The notes under the pieces are model-generated. The model saw only the letters and a list, made by a program, of their open reading frames with translations, did no database searches and was not told the origin of the DNA. Below are positions 21,717 to 32,305 of a DNA stretch of 64,000 nucleotides, in pieces. The DNA is from Candidatus Binatia bacterium (lineage in GTDB: Bacteria > Desulfobacterota > Binatia > Bin18). The DNA is taken from contig CAXXHG010000043.1 in NCBI GenBank assembly GCA_963666315.2, forward strand, positions 480,001-544,000, given 5' to 3'. Positions within the stretch are counted from its first letter, which is position 1, and every line of letters starts with the position of its first letter. A program made the translations under genes and the position numbers.

Positions 21717-22106
21717 ATGGACCAACCCTCAGAAAAAAGTATTAAACGCATGCGCATCTATGTAGAGAAATACATGCAGAAAACCGGCACCTCAGGCCAC
21801 CCGGATAACGAAGTGACCGAAGCCGTCATTCTGGGCCTGGCCAATAATATCGACGAAGTGGGCCGCCCGCTGTGTCCGTGTAATTTTTATCCTGACAAAA
21901 AAGCCGAAGTCGAGCGTAGTCGCGAATGGATGTGCGCCTGCGATGAGATGAAAAAGTGGAAGTATTGCCACTGTCTGCTCTTTGTGACTCCAGAGGGCAT
22001 GCCTATCACCGAATACCTGCCCGAAGACCACGAAGGCCGACAAAGTTACGGCCTCGTCAAAGACCCCACACCGGACAAAGGGCGAGAGTTGAAAGATAAG
22101 GCATAA
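21717..22106 (+). CDS. ftrC: Ferredoxin-thioredoxin reductase catalytic (4Fe-4S) subunit
   Basis: PLCPC..CAC..YCHCLLF six-cysteine signature; GAGGAG RBS. Confidence 0.9.
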   Translation: MDQPSEKSIKRMRIYVEKYMQKTGTSGHPDNEVTEAVILGLANNIDEVGRPLCPCNFYPDKKAEVERSREWMCACDEMKKWKYCHCLLFVTPEGMPITEYLPEDHEGRQSYGLVKDPTPDKGRELKDKA

Positions 22107-23974: not shown

Positions 23975-25108
23975 CTAAGCCTGCGCCTGCGCGCTCGCCG
24001 CAGCAAACTCGGCTTGCTCTTTAGGAAGCTGGAAGGCCGGATCATTTTGGATTACCGGCAGGACTTTCTCGGCAAAGAGCTGGAAACTACGGTTCAGTTG
24101 CGGAGCCGGCAGGCCACCAAAGGCAAAGGTACCGACCATGTGATCGAGTGCGACCGTTTTGTGAATATAACGGATTTTTTCAAGCACCTGCTCTGCAGTG
24201 CCGGCAGCGTGCAGGCCACGAAAGAACTCGACCGCCTTGGCCTTGACCTGTTCATCCGCATTGAGTTTGGCGAAGGTTTTCGCCATCTTGCCGTAAAACT
24301 CGTAGCCCTTGACGTTCTTCAGCTTACCAGAGGAAAAGCCATAGTGGTTTTCAATGGAATCGAACAGCGTGCCCATATACTGCTGAGCCAGATCCTCTGC
24401 TTCTTGCGCATCGTCAGCCACCAATACGTTGAAGAGTCCAATTGGCGGACGGGGCGTAATGCCGTTAGCCTGCGCTGTATCGACATAGCGTTGGTAATCC
24501 ACGGCCGTGTCTTCCCAGCTACGCTGGGAGATGATCAGCACCCCAAAGCCCATCTTGGCCATAATGTCAGCCGACTCCGGGCTCACCGAGGATGCATAAA
24601 AACGCTGCTCGGGATGAGAAATCGGGCGCGGGCGGATCTGCATTTCCGGGATCTGGTAATATTTGCCCTCATACGAAAAGCTTTCCTGGGTTAAGCCCCT
24701 ACGGATGATGTCCGCGCATTCAACAAAGCGTGCGCGCGACTCGTCCATGGGAATCCGGAAACCCTCGTATTCAACTATGGCTGCGCCCCGCCCAAAACCG
24801 AAAATGGTGCGGCCGCCCGACACCAGGTCTAGCAGCGCAATTTTCTCTGCCACTTCGACTGGATCGTGCCACGGCAGCACGATCACAGCGGTACCGAGTT
24901 GAATCTTTTTCGTGCGGCCAGCCATATAGGTCAGCAACTGACATGGGTCGGGTGACATCACATAGCCGGTGAAATGGTGGTCGAGACTCCACAGCGAGTC
25001 AAAGCCATAGCCTTCTGCTTTGTCGGCAATCGACAGTTCTTCTTGATAAGTCTGAAGATCAGGCTTGCCTCCAAAACTGGTCAATTGCATTATCGTGCCT
25101 ACTTTCAT
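23975..25108 (-). CDS. LLM class flavin-dependent oxidoreductase
   Basis: DSLWSLDHHF, LGTAVIVLPWHDP, GFGRG; start at MKVGT after AGGAGG. Confidence 0.92.
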   Translation of the reverse strand: MKVGTIMQLTSFGGKPDLQTYQEELSIADKAEGYGFDSLWSLDHHFTGYVMSPDPCQLLTYMAGRTKKIQLGTAVIVLPWHDPVEVAEKIALLDLVSGGRTIFGFGRGAAIVEYEGFRIPMDESRARFVECADIIRRGLTQESFSYEGKYYQIPEMQIRPRPISHPEQRFYASSVSPESADIMAKMGFGVLIISQRSWEDTAVDYQRYVDTAQANGITPRPPIGLFNVLVADDAQEAEDLAQQYMGTLFDSIENHYGFSSGKLKNVKGYEFYGKMAKTFAKLNADEQVKAKAVEFFRGLHAAGTAEQVLEKIRYIHKTVALDHMVGTFAFGGLPAPQLNRSFQLFAEKVLPVIQNDPAFQLPKEQAEFAAASAQAQA

Positions 25109-25337
25109 AACAACCCTCCTTGGTTCTCCCTTGGTCAAATTCGGGACCTATTGTAGAAGAGTAAGGCCAATTACACAAACGGTAGGATAAAAAGATTCAA
25201 GGTTCAAAGTTTAAGGTTCAAGTCTCCTGCCCCCAGCCCCTAATCCCTAACCCCTGCGGCCTTCCCCTTGGCTTTGAACATTTCCCCTCTTTCTGTTACA
25301 GGATCGAATCAATTCCCTGAAAGCAGAAGGAAAACCT

Positions 25338-26540
25338 ATGGTAATAGATTCATTACTCATCGATTGTGACGGACATATTCTCGAACCGCCTGATCTGTGG
25401 GAGCAGTATATTGATCCGCAATATCGTGATCGTGCCCTGCGCATCCGCGTCGATAAGAATGACGGGTATGAGTATATTGAGATTGATGGCAAGCGATCCA
25501 AACTCACGCGTCCGGGTACCCTCGGCACCTTGGGCGGCATGGGCAAGCAGGTGAATGAGGCCACCCAGCTGCGCGAGCGAGCTATGCGGGGTGAAATAAA
25601 ACCCGAAGAGGTGCGGGCGCTGCTACCAGGACCGGAGCAGACATATCTGAAGGGGGCCGCTTTCGGCACTATGGATATGAAAGAGCGGATAGAGCTGCTT
25701 GATCGTGAGGAGATGGCAAAATCAATCCTGTATCCCACGATAGGCCTGCTATGGGAGGCCGAGTTGTTTGATCCCGAACTGTCTGCAGCCTATTGCCGGG
25801 CGTATAACCGTTGGATTGCCGACTTCTGTCGTGACTCAGGCGGACGGCTGATCCCTATCGCACATCTTTCGCTTGGTGATCCGGCTGAGGCAGCGCGTGA
25901 ACTCGAACGTGCGGTTAAGGACGGCTGCAAGGGGGCCTTTGTGAGTCCGTTTACGATCTCACGTATCCCGCACGGCGACCCGCGCCATGACGCAGTGTTT
26001 GCAGTAGCCCAAGACCTGGACGTGCCTCTCGGCATTCATCCCACGTTTGAGCCGCCCGAATGGGGCATACACCAGCGCTACGATAAATTTGGTTGGGCTA
26101 TGTGGTACGTCGACCTCTTCGCCGGCCAGGGTGTACAACACGCCTTCGGTACATTTTTTCAGCTCGGGGTCTTTGACCGTTTCCCGCGCTTGCGAGTCGT
26201 AGTGCTGGAATCACAAGCCGGCTGGATCGGCTACTTCCTGGATCGTGCTGATGCGATTTTCAGCGGTACGACGCTCGGTGCGACCGTTCGCCTGAAAGAA
26301 AAACCGTCGTACTATTTTCAACGCCAGTGTTATATTTCTGCCGACCCTGGAGAACGGACCATCGCTTCCCTGACGAGCCTGGTCGGTGAGGACAAATTCT
26401 TCTGGGCCAGCGATTATCCGCATCCCGACCATCCGGACAATTATCTCGAAGAGTTGCAGAAGATGATTGCTCCTATGAATGATACCGCCCGGCGCGGTAT
26501 TCTGGGCGAGAATGTTGCCAAAGCCTATAAGCTGAACTGA
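25338..26540 (+). CDS. Amidohydrolase family 2 (Amidohydro_2) protein
   Basis: DCDGHILEP, LYPT, RAYNRW, ESQAGW, WASDYPHPD. Confidence 0.92.
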   Translation: MVIDSLLIDCDGHILEPPDLWEQYIDPQYRDRALRIRVDKNDGYEYIEIDGKRSKLTRPGTLGTLGGMGKQVNEATQLRERAMRGEIKPEEVRALLPGPEQTYLKGAAFGTMDMKERIELLDREEMAKSILYPTIGLLWEAELFDPELSAAYCRAYNRWIADFCRDSGGRLIPIAHLSLGDPAEAARELERAVKDGCKGAFVSPFTISRIPHGDPRHDAVFAVAQDLDVPLGIHPTFEPPEWGIHQRYDKFGWAMWYVDLFAGQGVQHAFGTFFQLGVFDRFPRLRVVVLESQAGWIGYFLDRADAIFSGTTLGATVRLKEKPSYYFQRQCYISADPGERTIASLTSLVGEDKFFWASDYPHPDHPDNYLEELQKMIAPMNDTARRGILGENVAKAYKLN

Positions 26541-26565
26541 ATCAAAGGAGGTATAAGGAGACAGT

Positions 26566-27720
26566 ATGGCCGACCAAGACATTAAGAGGGCCGTGCAGGA
26601 TATTGAGTGTCCGGTGGTTGAGCAGCCTGCCTTCACTACCCCACCTCCTCTGGAAGAAGCGACGGTGGCCATCGTTACCTCGGCGTCGCTGCACCATCCC
26701 GACCAGGATGACTTCGCCCCGAAAGATACCAGCTACCGGGTGCTCGACGCGTCGCGGCGCGACTATCTTGTTGGCCACTGGAGCCCCAACTTTGACACGG
26801 CAGGTGTTGCCGCCGATCTGAACGTTGTGTTTCCCCTCGACCGGCTAGATGAGCTCGCTGCCCAAGGACGTATCGGCAAAGTTGCCGACCAACACTTAGC
26901 CTTTGCCGGTAACCAATTTGACCTGGCTCAGATTCGGATGGACGGTGGCCCTGCAGGTGCGGCGTTTCTCAAAGAACAGGGCGTTGACGTAGTGCTGCTC
27001 ACCCCAGTCTGACCGCTGTGCACGCGTACCGTGTGTACGCTGGCGCATATCTTTGAGGCAGCTGGAATGGCGACGGTAGCCCTTGGTTCGATCCGCCAAC
27101 AAATGATCGGTACTGCGCCACCGCGCGGGTTGGCGTGTGACTTTCCGTTGGGGCGTCCCATCGGTAAACCCAATGACGCGGAGTTCCAGCACAAGGTGCT
27201 CGCCCACGCGTTCTCCATGCTGAAGCGAACCGAGCCAGGTGTCGAAGATTTTCCCGAATCCATTCCAGACGAAGGAACTGAAATGCTCGTATGTCCACTT
27301 CCACCCAGGCACGATCCTGATGCCCATCCCGCTGTTGATGAGGCACGTGGCCTACGGGTGGCCTACGACCGGGCCATCGAGAAGTACGGTAATCGTGTCG
27401 GGGCCGGTCGAGCTATCAGTGCGGACGATGTCCCATCTGCCATTGAATCGTTTATTCGGATCAGCGAAGGAACGCCGTGGAAAGAAGCCCAGATTCCCGG
27501 CGTTCCAGCCCGCGTCGCCCAGGACATTCGCGGCTACTACGAGACGGCAGCATTGGCCATTGTCGATCATACGCCGGCGGCCTGGGCGGGTCTGCGCTGG
27601 TTTCGTGATGCAACCCAAACAGGCAAAGTTATCCGGGCGGCTCAGCAGGCCATGAAAGATGCCGACGTCCGGCGGGACTTGTGGCTCTTCTTGCTGCCTA
27701 TGGATAGTATGCAGGACTAA
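26566..27720 (+). CDS. Selenoprotein, glycine/betaine/sarcosine/D-proline reductase B (PrdB/GrdB-like) with C-terminal extension; Sec at TGA 27010-27012
   Basis: ORFs 26566-27012 and 27031-27720 share one frame; read-through gives LLTPV-U-PLC-TRTV (UxxC as in PrdB); N-half AIVTSA..DLNVVFPLDRL; C-half PPR..FPLGRPIGKP. Confidence 0.88.
27010..27052 (+). promoter_or_regulatory. Candidate bacterial SECIS hairpin
   Basis: Just 3' of the TGA: gcgtac-cgtgt-gtacgc (alternative fold tgcacgcg-tac-cgtgtgta), G/U-containing loop about 17-22 nt after the UGA. Confidence 0.55.
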
Positions 27721-27735
27721 AAGGAAGACACAGAT

Positions 27736-28218
27736 ATGGCTTCTTTCTTATCAATAAATGACCCTGAGTTCTGGAAACACTACCCCGAGGAGCTGAAAGA
27801 CTTGGCCGGGACTCCTCCAGAAGGCATAACCGGACTGGCCTATTTTTTGTTGGGTGACAGGAAAGACAACCCACCGACCGTGGTGACCCTGCGCATGGGG
27901 CCGAACTGGGTCTTGCCTCGACACGCACATGACTGCCATCGCTTTGAAGTCGTAGTACAAGGCAGCCTGGACGTGGGAGATCGGACGCTCAAGCCCGGAG
28001 ACGTGATGATTAGCGAACCAGGCCTCGCCTACGGCCCACATATCGCTGGCCCAGAAGGCTGCACGACTTTTGAGATCTTCAGCAACCACCGCGCCTCGTA
28101 TGTGACCTTCGTTGATACGCCAGAAGGGCGCGTCGAGTGCGACATGTCGACTCCGGAAGGGCTGAAGAAAATGGAGCAGGTCATGCAGCGGGATATGGAG
28201 GCGCAGGCGCAGGCGTAG
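27736..28218 (+). CDS. Cupin-domain protein (ChrR-like)
   Basis: PRHAH..RFEVVVQGSL..LKPGD..YGPH metal-binding cupin motifs. Confidence 0.8.
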   Translation: MASFLSINDPEFWKHYPEELKDLAGTPPEGITGLAYFLLGDRKDNPPTVVTLRMGPNWVLPRHAHDCHRFEVVVQGSLDVGDRTLKPGDVMISEPGLAYGPHIAGPEGCTTFEIFSNHRASYVTFVDTPEGRVECDMSTPEGLKKMEQVMQRDMEAQAQA

Positions 28219-28233
28219 CGGAGACCAGCATAA

Positions 28234-28271
28234 TCCCTTCTCCCTTGAGGGAGAAGGTTAGGATGAGGGGG
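28234..28271. repeat. REP-like repeat family B (CCCTCTCCC..GGGAGAGG..GGTGAGGG)
   Basis: tcccttctcccttgagggagaaggttaggatgagggg; related copy at 44890-44980. Confidence 0.65.
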
Positions 28272-28379
28272 AATCAGGAAAAACTCCCCCTTCAGCTAAG
28301 AATGGAATAACATAAATTTGGCCCCGACCCCACCCGCCGGCGCGCTGCTCCAATCCTCATCTTGCCTGCTTGAGCCGAG

Positions 28380-28671
28380 TTAGAGCCCCTCGACCAAGAC
28401 GAGATCGCCGCTGGAGCCAGTTTGGCGTAACTTAATAAGCGGGGCGTACTCCGGGTCGTTGTACCACGCTTGTGCCTTCTCCATGGACGGGAACTCAATA
28501 ACGACCCTCACCCTTGATGACGGCGCTGTTCCTTCCTTGACCTCCGTCTTCCCTCCGCGCACCAAATACCGTCCCCCATGCTTCTCCACCAGAGCCTCGA
28601 CCTTCGGGCCATACTCTTCCAACCATGAGGGATCGGCTCACATCTACTGCACCGATAAGATAAGCTGGCAT
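28380..28671 (-). pseudogene. DUF1330 family protein with +1 frameshift near the 5' end
   Basis: MPAYLIGAVDV from ATG 28671, then shifted DPSWLEEY..HGGRYLVRGG..IEFPS..AWYNDPEY. Confidence 0.85.
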
Positions 28672-28798
28672 AACTGTGACCTCCTTCGTATTTCCTAAAG
28701 TCTCATCTCGCCTATCGTAGTAGTCGAAGGCGGTAAGTCAATCACAACGAAAGCTTCTCAATGTAAAAAATTGTAAAAGGAGACTGCTTCTCCCGCAC

Positions 28799-28948
28799 CC
28801 AAACTTCGGCATGACCTGCGTGGCGAACAGCTCCATTGAGCGTTCGGACTGAGCTTGGGTCAGACTGCCCCAAGCAAATGACACCAAAATATAATTGTAG
28901 CCGCTCGTCTCAAAGAAGCTGGCAATGGCGCCCTGCATTCGACTGGGC
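28799..28948 (-). repeat. Diverged duplicate of the 3' end of the LLM gene (31281-31430)
   Basis: 150-bp direct repeat, about the first 50 bp identical; encodes SFFETSG..ELFATQVMPKFG. Confidence 0.92.
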
Positions 28949-29133
28949 AATCTTTCGCTCGGCCCGCTATCAGCTCGTATCGGGCGGAGGAGTAGGATGG
29001 CCATGAGCTTGAGTGTGCAGATCGTGGCCTATCTTCTCTATTTCTCCGCACATGGCGACACCACGCCGGTTGCCTGCCCTTATTGCCCAGGGTAAGACAG
29101 AACCATCAGAATAACCGAGGGAGCGTAACGACC

Positions 29134-29801
29134 ATGGCATCAGATATACAGTTCCACTACTTCCACGGAAGAGGCATCGGAGAGCCGATCCGCCTGCTGT
29201 TCACCGTGGGTGAGATCGAATTTACAGACCATCGTTATACCGTGGACCGAATTCGCCGATATGGCGGCGTTCAAAGCACAGCTGCCTTTCGGACAAATGC
29301 CTGCCCTTGAGGTAGACGGCGTATTCATAGGGCAGACGGACAGCATTGCGCGTCTAGCTGCGCGCTTAGCTGGTTTGTATCCGTCGGATCCTATTGAGGC
29401 AGCGCGCAGTGACATGATCGTCGTGCACCAAGCGGAAATTCAGTCTGCCATCGCAAAGATGAGCTTCGATGGCGTTCCCGGTACTCCAGAGATGAAAATG
29501 GTTCCGCAAGAAGAGAGGCAGAAACGCATCGCCGCATTTTGCGAGACGAAGCTTCCCGGCCTTCTGCTACGCCTAGAGCATCTGCCACAGGAATCCTGCA
29601 TGGGTGGGGTCGCAGCTGTCGTGGGCTGATATTTCTGTCTTCAATCGGTTGAACCAACTACTCGACATGAATGAAAACGTATTGCAGCCTGACTTCCCAA
29701 AACTGCAGGCGGTATACGAAAGAGTCGAGGCGTTACCGCAAATCCAGTCATGGATGCAGATGCACAAAGACGACTATCCCAGATGCGAAGCAGGGGGCTA
29801 A
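29134..29801 (+). pseudogene. Sigma-class-like glutathione S-transferase, two +1 frameshifts
   Basis: YFHGRGIGEPIRLLF, LPFGQMPALEVDG..GQTDSIAR, LSWADI; shifts near 29248 and 29606. Confidence 0.85.
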
Positions 29802-31276: not shown

Positions 31277-32305
31277 TCATCCAAACTTCGGCATGACCTG
31301 CGTGGCGAACAGCTCCATTGAGCGTTCGGACTGGGTTTGGGTCAGACCACCCCAGGCGAATGATCCCAAAATATAATTGCAGCCACTGGTCTCAAAGAAG
31401 CTGGCAATGGCGTCCTGCACTCGACTGGGCGAGCCGACGATGGCGACGTCGAGGCTGCGGGCGACATCCAGGTCCGGGGTGAACAAGGTGTGAGCAACAC
31501 CAAAGTCCAGCCACAGTTTTTCGATGTTGTCGTAATGCTTTTTGTAGGCCGGCGTAGCAATGGTCTCGGCTTCCTGATCGGTCTCGGCCACAAAAATATG
31601 CCGCAAGGCGCCCATCTTGGGCGCTTCAATATGCGGGTTGAGATTCAGCGGATTATCGCGGTTTTGGGACCACATGTCTTGATACTGAGCCGTCAGTTTC
31701 TTGAGTCCATTATTCGGTCCGCCGCTGGCCATGTGCATGCCGCGCTCGGCGGCAAATTGGAGGCTGTTCGGATTGACGACACCATACCAAAAGGGTGGAT
31801 TCGGCGTTTGCTTGGGGTGAAGTTCAATGGGCACGTCTACGCATTCATAATGCCGACCCTGATACGACAGGCGCTCTTGGCGTAGGCCCGCCACGACCAT
31901 CTCAAGCGCTTCTTGAAACATCGCGCGCGAATGCAGAAAAGGCACCCCAAAGTACGCCTGTTCAAAGGGCGAGACGCCTCGGCCCACACCGATCTCTAAG
32001 CGTCCGTTACTCATATGATCGAGCATGCAGATTTCTTCAATAAGTCGTAGCGGATGATACAGCGGCAGCAAATAGACGAGCGGACCCAAGCGGATGCGCT
32101 TGGTGTGTTGTATTGCCGCTGCCAGGAATAGACTCGGCGATGGGGCCATACCCAGCGGCGTGGCATGGTGTTCGGCCAAGTGATAGCAGTAAAAACCCGC
32201 CTCGTCGGCCATTTTCAGCAGCCGCAGCCGCCCGTCATACAGTGCACCGAGCGTGTCTTCTCTGCGCTCCTGATGGTCAAATATCCCAAAAGCAACACTA
32301 CTCAT
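31277..32305 (-). CDS. LLM class flavin-dependent oxidoreductase
   Basis: YHLAEHH, LGPLVYLLPLYHPLRL, GVGRG. Confidence 0.92.
   Translation of the reverse strand: MSSVAFGIFDHQERREDTLGALYDGRLRLLKMADEAGFYCYHLAEHHATPLGMAPSPSLFLAAAIQHTKRIRLGPLVYLLPLYHPLRLIEEICMLDHMSNGRLEIGVGRGVSPFEQAYFGVPFLHSRAMFQEALEMVVAGLRQERLSYQGRHYECVDVPIELHPKQTPNPPFWYGVVNPNSLQFAAERGMHMASGGPNNGLKKLTAQYQDMWSQNRDNPLNLNPHIEAPKMGALRHIFVAETDQEAETIATPAYKKHYDNIEKLWLDFGVAHTLFTPDLDVARSLDVAIVGSPSRVQDAIASFFETSGCNYILGSFAWGGLTQTQSERSMELFATQVMPKFG

Follow-up and report, generated by a model that had tools for sequence, protein, structure and literature searches.

The window analysed here (the whole stretch of DNA, 64,000 nucleotides (nt) of contig CAXXHG010000043.1 from a Candidatus Binatia bacterium) contains a gene for a long form of the PrdB-like selenoproteins. 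Its predicted product of 384 amino acids (aa) contains selenocysteine (Sec) encoded by an in-frame TGA, and combines a region related to subunit B of D-proline and glycine reductases with an additional helical domain. Comparison of this gene with its relatives in genomes and metagenomes suggests that the long form is probably a stand-alone selenol/thiol reductase, a reading to which we assign a probability of roughly 0.6. This kind of protein is already known; the long form and the lack of a partner subunit are what is new.

Under translation table 11, the gene appears as two same-frame open reading frames (ORFs), 26566..27012 (148 aa) and 27031..27720, split by a lone TGA at 27010-27012 (+). 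When this TGA is read through, a single 384-residue product is obtained (26566..27720, +, TAA stop), with the sequence ...VVLLTPV-U-PLCTRTVC..., in which Sec is residue 149. Its U-x-x-C partner, Cys152, is encoded at 27019..27021 (+) and is invariant in alignments A1, A2 and A5. An earlier reading of the DNA letters alone (the sequence-only reading) had claimed this ORF pair, the TPV-U-PLC read-through and a gene encoding Sec within a UxxC motif. As checks, it had named an alignment of homologues at the TGA codon, a search for selA, selB, selC and selD, a model of the C-terminal domain, and an analysis of the gene neighbourhood. The ORF pair and the read-through were confirmed, the Sec gene was supported by codon conservation, Cys homologues, a hairpin and the Sec machinery, and the first three checks agreed with the claims; the fourth did not, as described below.

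In a scan of GTDB with one genome per species, 366 relatives were found among 485 candidate stretches, and in the best 80 of these loci, codon 149 is TGA in every case (80/80), with a second TGA serving as the true stop in 31 of the 80 orthologues. A scan of metagenomes was led on purpose by a Cys-containing homologue, and 80 loci were taken and counted by DNA pattern. The P-V-TGA-P-x-C word was present in 73 of these, the Cys word in three, and neither pattern in four. Binatia genomes contain the gene in 9 of 61 cases, and each of the 10 matches carries one TGA. The proteins are 66-89% identical in both halves across several phyla, with TGA retained. All six full-length database homologues (approximately 50% identity) have PVCPxC, i.e., Cys at the Sec column. 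Of eight full-length forms that are more distant, seven share this motif and the eighth has TVCPFC; in one further form, P0259, the first Cys is lost. The Cys forms are contiguous. Past the TGA, the sole possible start is a GTG that lies within the hairpin described below and lacks a ribosome-binding site (RBS), and P150-C152, including the invariant Cys152, lies between the TGA and this next possible start. Separate translation of the halves would leave Cys152 untranslated, and therefore the split-gene alternative fails. It should be noted that the preceding amidohydrolase gene ends in TGA, so that TGA is an ordinary stop codon in this genome. Most database entries are C-terminal fragments of 217-242 aa called 'hypothetical protein'. 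Gene callers split the gene at the TGA, and the presence of most Sec forms in databases under such truncated entries is a systematic annotation error.

A hairpin resembling a selenocysteine insertion sequence (SECIS) is located at 27020..27044 (+), with its onset approximately 10 nt past the UGA codon, in the RNAalifold consensus of 57 distinct sequences. The upper stem comprises 6 base pairs (27024-27029 with 27035-27040, GCGUAC/GUACGC), and two lower pairs join 27020-27021 with 27043-27044. The apical loop (27030-27034) reads CGUGU or CGUGA, has G as its second base and starts 18 nt after the UGA; the distance and loop rules for bacterial SECIS elements applied here are general background rather than the output of a tool. 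The fraction of paired cells is 89.6% in the hairpin, compared to 9-65% when the partner is slid. Compensatory changes are found in two pairs, U-A to C-G in three sequences and G-C to A-U in one, and the translations show that the C-G change entails a replacement of Thr by Ala in two sequences. The 48 nt following the TGA have a per-column identity of 91% in the 57 distinct sequences, whereas the proteins are merely 66-89% identical. The single-sequence fold of 27000-27080 has a z-score of 0.14, which is not significant and is uninformative alone.

Two side observations concern the same site. Contigs of other organisms in public runs match 26980-27041 alone (62 nt, the Sec codon and hairpin) and then diverge, and local depth has a spike over this interval (46 and 37.5 versus approximately 10 and 5 in the flanks); the confinement of these short matches again shows conservation of the nucleotide sequence at this site. 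The apical-loop bases 27030 and 27033 (columns 21 and 24 of alignment A3) co-vary, being C..G mostly, G..C in seven sequences and A..A or A..C in two. This co-variation at third codon positions may be the result of shared ancestry rather than structure.

The genome of the window is 92.4% complete and contains selA, selB, selC and selD, all above curated cut-offs: selA has a score of 592.8 bits, selB 378.3 bits, selD 308.3 bits and tRNA-Sec 66.8 bits. The tRNA-Sec gene adjoins selA on the same contig, approximately 100 kb from the window, and was confirmed by ARAGORN as tRNA-SeC with anticodon tca. Thus, four independent lines of evidence (codon conservation, Cys homologues, the SECIS-like hairpin and the machinery) establish the predicted decoding of UGA149 as selenocysteine. 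A separate feature of this machinery is that SelD forms the C-terminal half of a 757-aa protein (L009:1390-3663, contig C28), the N-terminal half of which is a pyridine-nucleotide-disulfide oxidoreductase domain (Pyr_redox_2, 87.6 bits).

The top NCBIfam match of the protein is TIGR04483, PrdB, with 124.4 bits and an E-value of 4.8e-36 (residues 12-221 aligned to positions 9-220 of the 238 in the profile), and the U149-P-L-C152 motif lies inside the aligned stretch. The score is below the equivalog cut-off of 300 bits; other long forms have 108.3 bits (orthologue L045) and 103.5 and 120.3 bits (Cys forms). The NCBIfam models of GrdF, GrdH and GrdB score below the PrdB model. The Pfam family GRDB (PF07355) is matched with 30.2 bits versus a gathering threshold of 22, over profile positions 222-345 of 347, i.e., the last third up to the Sec, and the TIGR01918 subfamily with 39 bits versus a cut-off of 65.45. 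The relation to PrdB and GrdB claimed in the sequence-only reading is supported by the TIGR04483 match and the partial GRDB match; at the level of sequence, residues 1 to approximately 230 have a common origin with the B subunits of the reductases acting on D-proline, glycine, sarcosine and betaine.

The likeness to each of these proteins is partial. PrdB of the Clostridium sticklandii/C. difficile type is the best-scoring family and shares Sec in U-x-x-C; however, it is a single-domain protein of approximately 240 residues, compared to 384 aa with an extra helical domain of approximately 150 aa in the long form, the long form reaches 124 bits where the cut-off of the PrdB model is 300, and no PrdA is found in the genome. 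In addition, PrdB belongs to Stickland fermenters, whereas the holders of the long form are marine Binatia, Acidimicrobiia, Pseudomonadales and Entotheonella. Like GrdB, GrdF and GrdH (PF07355, TIGR01918), the long form is above the Pfam gathering threshold and has the same redox motif. Conversely, it matches only the last third of the profile and stays below the TIGR01918 cut-off, GrdA and GrdE were not found, and the GrdB proteins, of approximately 430 aa, have a different N-terminal half.

The AlphaFold2 model of the full protein, built from 23 sequences, has a predicted local distance difference test score (pLDDT) of 90.4 and a predicted template modelling score (pTM) of 0.90. It consists of a Rossmann-like alpha/beta domain to residue ~230, a coil with C243-P-L-P-P-R, and a helical domain to residue ~373; the U-x-x-C motif follows strand 142-146, at the opening of helix 152-165. 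Comparison of the full model by VIA-align gave a best Z of 8.9 to LacI-like, short-chain dehydrogenase/reductase (SDR)-like and periplasmic binding protein (PBP)-like structures, over residues 27-234 only. These matches represent the common Rossmann-like arrangement and hence allow no functional inference.

The extra C-terminal region of approximately 150 aa described in the sequence-only reading is real and is conserved in the alignments, including its CPLPPR, DIRGYYE and WF..T segments (residues ~236-384, family-specific helical domain, 27271..27717, +). Folded alone from 38 sequences, it gives a confident helical fold with a pLDDT of 89.4. At E<=1, no Pfam family was found for this domain in the 38 members, GRDB being the only match, in the 13 full-length ones, and comparison with 48,161 PDB representatives yielded no structural match (best Z 4.1). 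When 1.84 billion cluster representatives were searched exhaustively with phmmer, only 176 matched the domain at E<=0.001, and these are C-terminal fragments of approximately 226 aa starting past the TGA, shorter fragments, or Cys forms of full length (380-420 aa). The predicted helical domain is found almost only in the long-form PrdB-like family. The sole case of the domain inside a much longer protein is P0153 (1019 aa, domain at residues 692-826, no Pfam family), which may result from a gene fusion or from an error in gene calling.

The positions invariant in the 23 sequences include U/C149, C152, C243, E259, R264, Y267, R269, R282, D320, R322, Y324, Y325, E326 and W345. Cys243, encoded at 27292-27294 (+) in the C-x-L-P-P-R linker, is invariant in alignments A2 (23 sequences) and A5 (12 sequences) and is conserved in at least 90% of A4 (38 sequences). 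In the model, it lies in the coil between the two domains, and the residue preceding it is variable (V, A, S, T or E). Two of the Cys forms have Val in place of Cys191.

In PrdB and GrdB, the substrate is bound to the pyruvoyl group of the partner subunit and is attacked by Sec at its alpha-carbon, the neighbouring Cys resolves the selenoether to a selenenylsulfide, and a dithiol re-reduces the latter. The pyruvoyl group of PrdA and GrdE is made from a Cys, as reportedly stated in the title of a 1999 paper by Kabisch et al. The profile of the pyruvoyl proprotein GrdE/PrdA (PF09338) has no match in the genome of the window, nor in any of five other genomes that hold the gene (0 of 5). As a positive control, the same search found the family above the cut-off in 8 of 251 Actinomycetota genomes (up to 345 bits; one of the eight is an unpublished genome, G213), and therefore the absence of PF09338 is meaningful. 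The GrdA profile (PF04723) has no match in the genome of the window either, in a search without a positive control, and neither profile has a match in 14 control genomes. In the 80 GTDB loci and six metagenome loci, the flanking genes that recur or were scanned against Pfam include none of the PF09338 or PF04723 type. The absence of the pyruvoyl partner, noted originally for the window only, is thus confirmed and extends to the whole genome at its present completeness.

The holders of the long form are marine and comprise Candidatus Binatia, Entotheonella, Acidimicrobiia (Poriferisodalis, Ilumatobacteraceae, Microthrix), Azotimanducaceae/Pseudomonadales and others, and at least 332 metagenome matches were found. 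Within the family of the window, the gene is present in five of six Binatia genomes, the genome of the window excluded. The Binatia copy is 66-70% identical to the copies of Acidimicrobiia and Pseudomonadales; together with the patchy occurrence in Binatia, this identity across phyla is compatible with possible lateral spread. Runs of seawater and marine metagenomes, from 14 studies, contain the stretch of the window, and a 2997-nt contig from an independent run covers the amidohydrolase, selenoprotein and cupin genes with approximately 98% identity and no indels listed.

There are four PrdB-like Sec genes in the genome of the window. The second long-form copy, on contig C41, is 51% identical and lies right behind a paralogue of the amidohydrolase (Amidohydro_2) and ahead of a glutathione S-transferase (GST) gene. 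Both members of this C41 pair (L023:19-2785) are spread over two frames, with an additional in-frame TGA in the amidohydrolase paralogue; the pair represents either decaying duplicates or assembly indel errors. The other two genes are short forms of approximately 230-270 aa, on contigs C29 (L025:1504-2196, -) and C46 (L026:1384-2193), with VPV-U-PVC and VAL-U-PVC motifs and TIGR04483 scores of 153 and 91 bits, respectively.

The selenoprotein gene of the window follows an Amidohydro_2 gene (25338..26540, +; PF04909, 92.4 bits) of the ACMSD/LigW-type metal-dependent decarboxylase/hydrolase superfamily, the stop codon of which is the TGA at 26538-26540. The closest relatives of its product with a solved structure are PtmU3 (89 bits), 2,3-dihydroxybenzoate decarboxylase and 5-carboxyvanillate decarboxylase. 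The gap between the two genes is 25 nt (26540 to 26566) and, as read from the sequence, an RBS-like AAGGAGG / AAGGAG at 26545..26560 (+) precedes the ATG at 26566. The gap of 15 nt behind the TAA contains AAGGAAG and leads to a small cupin gene (27736..28218, +), with weak Pfam matches below gathering (Cupin_7 22.1 bits, Cupin_2 18.2 bits) and a match of its product to the PDB cupin 4e2g with an E-value of 9e-4. A luciferase-like monooxygenase (LLM) gene (23975..25138, -; Bac_luciferase, 214.5 bits) is divergent, and is separated from the amidohydrolase gene by 199 nt (25139-25337). A promoter/terminator scan of 24900-28700 yielded two promoter-like sites versus 2.1 expected, none of them within 25139-25337. 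Both gaps with their RBS-like sites and the divergent LLM gene agree with the sequence-only reading; its proposal of an amidohydrolase/PrdB-like/cupin operon as a conserved system does not hold. The neighbour counts, obtained with a naive ORF caller and single-linkage clustering in the 80 GTDB loci, are approximate. Of the 15 closest loci (L027-L041), nine have the amidohydrolase next to the selenoprotein gene, compared to none of the 65 others, and the cupin cluster is found in 10 of 80; the arrangement is limited to some Binatia and is not shared across lineages. The amidohydrolase and cupin context is lineage-specific and does not define the enzyme.

The commonest neighbour is a major facilitator superfamily (MFS) transporter, found in 25 of 80 loci (23 of them with both genes on one strand) at a median distance of 52 nt downstream. 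An indolepyruvate-type 2-oxoacid:ferredoxin oxidoreductase is near the gene in 20 loci, a PhyH dioxygenase in 17, an SDR in 15 and an EamA transporter in 7. Six of the 80 metagenome loci, examined by hand, contain SDRs, enoyl-CoA hydratases, a P450, a 2-oxoglutarate (2OG) oxygenase, a glycoside hydrolase and aminotransferases, and in one of the six an Amidohydro_2 gene is on the opposite strand.

Several further features of the window were noted. A gene of the ferredoxin-thioredoxin reductase catalytic beta chain-like family (PF02943, 78 bits) lies at 21717-22106 (+), approximately 4.5 kb upstream of the selenoprotein gene; its predicted product could be a disulfide-reducing partner of the selenoprotein. 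The genes at 28380-29801, 3' of the cupin gene, appear damaged: a DUF1330 gene is spread over two frames (MPAYLIGAVDV... in one, the remainder in the other), an 88-aa remnant (28738..29004) is a copy of the C-terminus of an LLM gene at 31277..32305, and a GST gene is broken across three frames, with an intact ORF of 221 aa in the near-identical contig (L027:3930-4592). In the RNA run X20, one 188-nt contig covers the cupin gene at 28026-28213 and the selenoprotein gene is uncovered, and run X19, which is only guessed to be RNA, has 90-95% identity, i.e., comes from relatives; these runs neither show nor exclude transcription.

The function of the long form can be considered against this background. 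As the pyruvoyl subunit (PrdA/GrdE) and also GrdA were not found, the protein is presumably not a D-proline or glycine reductase, and with no pyruvoyl partner, a stand-alone reductase acting through U149 and C152 is the most economical reading; the pTM of the full-length model, that of one folded unit, also counts in its favour. The self-contained enzyme of reductive cleavage proposed in the sequence-only reading would thus be a reasonable interpretation. The hairpin past the codon is the predicted signal for decoding by the genome's own SelA, SelB, SelD and tRNA-Sec. Under the stand-alone scheme, a small molecule taken up by the cell would undergo attack by Sec149 at an electrophilic atom. 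The adduct would then be converted to a selenenylsulfide through Cys152, perhaps together with Cys243, cellular thiol systems would re-reduce this selenenylsulfide, and the added helical domain would supply the substrate pocket that is given by the partner subunit in the clostridial enzymes.

Several points weigh against this reading. The function of the long form is a prediction, as is any proximity of Cys243 and the helical domain to Sec149. A PrdB or GrdB structure was not found in the PDB by a profile search of PDB sequences (best E 0.62), and Foldseek against the PDB gave nothing at E<=0.001. The neighbours are too varied for naming a pathway, a partner may come from an unrecognised family, and the repeated pairing with an amidohydrolase gene in Binatia, the second copy in this genome included, may reflect a genuine module of two enzymes, in which case the term 'stand-alone' underplays it.

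Among the alternatives, the one that survives best, although we regard it as rather unlikely, is a general thiol/selenol-disulfide oxidoreductase of the thioredoxin type, which would reduce protein disulfides, peroxides or similar substrates and would cleave no small-molecule bond. The position of U-x-x-C at a helix N-terminus, directly after strand 142-146, is consistent with such a role, as is the fact that a pathway partner conserved across lineages was not found. GST genes and the ferredoxin-thioredoxin-reductase-like gene are near the selenoprotein gene in Binatia, and the marine 'PrdB' has been filed with the thiol-dependent redox selenoproteins in earlier catalogues. Conversely, the sole detectable relatives of the protein are B subunits of substrate-cleaving reductases, transporter genes often adjoin, and the strong conservation of a large extra domain, with many charged or aromatic positions that are invariant (R248, E259, R264, Y267, R269, D320, R322, Y324, Y325, E326 and W345), suggests a specific ligand pocket.

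A single-chain reductive deaminase is a more doubtful alternative. In such an enzyme, the helical domain would acquire an N-terminal pyruvoyl group through autoprocessing of Cys243, in the manner of PrdA/GrdE, so that one gene would give both the amine-binding carbonyl and the C-N-cleaving Sec. The nearly invariant Cys243 in the interdomain coil, the origin of the PrdA/GrdE pyruvoyl group from a Cys, and the failure to find the PF09338 family in the genomes holding the gene are all in line with this idea. However, the C-terminal domain was tried as a relative of PF09338, with 0 of 38 members matching at E<=1, and of the GrdE/PrdA family, with an hhalign probability of 1.5% against L187 and the alignment in the N-terminal domain, and both candidates were rejected. 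In addition, the residue before Cys243 varies, and the model is a single intact chain.

Considerably less probable is that the long form is the selenium subunit of a genuine D-proline/glycine-type reductase whose pyruvoyl partner is elsewhere or was missed. PrdB is the top family match, the JGI label of the Cys homologues is 'D-proline reductase (dithiol) PrdB', and the genome is 92.4% complete, all of which would fit such a role. Against it are the score of 124 bits versus the equivalog cut-off of 300, the length of 384 versus approximately 240 aa, and the results of the partner searches: PF09338 is lacking in the window's own and five of five other holder genomes with a working positive control, PF04723 was not found in the own genome (no positive control), and no partner gene is present in the flanks of the 80 GTDB or six examined metagenome loci. 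Finally, a true stop, i.e., a split gene, pseudogene or assembly error, is highly improbable: gene callers do split the gene, database entries are mostly C-terminal fragments and several nearby genes of the window appear frameshifted, but the TGA is kept in 80/80 and 73/80 loci of several phyla with both halves conserved, the second half has no start or RBS save the GTG inside the hairpin, the Cys forms are contiguous, and the independent 2997-nt contig spans the stretch without indels.

The claim of the sequence-only reading that this is an undescribed system was too strong, according to the parts of the published surveys that were available. The marine PrdB family with UxxC was catalogued in 2005 and 2008 as highly abundant (PMC1088965, PMC2398784): 'Proline reductase PrdB' (UxxC, pfam07355) ranked third in abundance among the selenoprotein families of the Sargasso Sea, with 42 Sec forms and 1 Cys form (PMC1088965), and PrdB was among the top selenoprotein families of the Global Ocean Sampling (GOS) data, with 235 Sec and 110 Cys forms (PMC2398784). 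Later reviews, in the portions seen, list PrdB again (PMC9312934, PMC13188914, PMC1794560). As far as these portions go, the long form resembles the catalogued family in the UxxC motif, pfam07355, the excess of Sec over Cys forms and the habitat, although the two short forms of the genome fit that family at least as well as the long form does. In the accessible portions of these sources, no C-terminal extension, absence of PrdA or gene context is described for the catalogued family; supplementary tables may differ. Likewise, the long form, its extra domain, the absence of a pyruvoyl partner and a function were not found in the portions of the literature searched, and supplementary tables might list them. 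Among automatic annotations, the Cys homologue P0022 has a value of 0.94 to a 415-aa ESM Atlas cluster, in which 81% of members have PF07355. This cluster is named 'glycine/sarcosine/betaine reductase selenoprotein B family protein', a label that was assigned automatically and does not reflect a function.

To our knowledge, no function is known for PrdB-like proteins outside clostridia. In the most far-reaching version of our interpretation, which we consider speculative and improbable, the long form would be a self-sufficient single-gene selenoenzyme for reductive cleavage of C-N (or C-S) bonds in heterotrophs of the oxic ocean and in sponge symbionts, with the helical domain replacing PrdA/GrdE and Cys243 serving as a pyruvoyl precursor or as a third redox cysteine. 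If true, an osmolyte-like amine taken up by the cell would be subject to Stickland-type chemistry in the absence of a Stickland complex. More generally, the long form represents a widespread subfamily in which Sec is almost always kept, with a domain without known fold, in genomes without the pyruvoyl partner. Marine PrdB-like proteins have been known as abundant in the surface ocean for approximately twenty years, and the long form, for which natural Cys forms are available, is a defined, expressible target for learning what the selenium demand buys marine heterotrophs.

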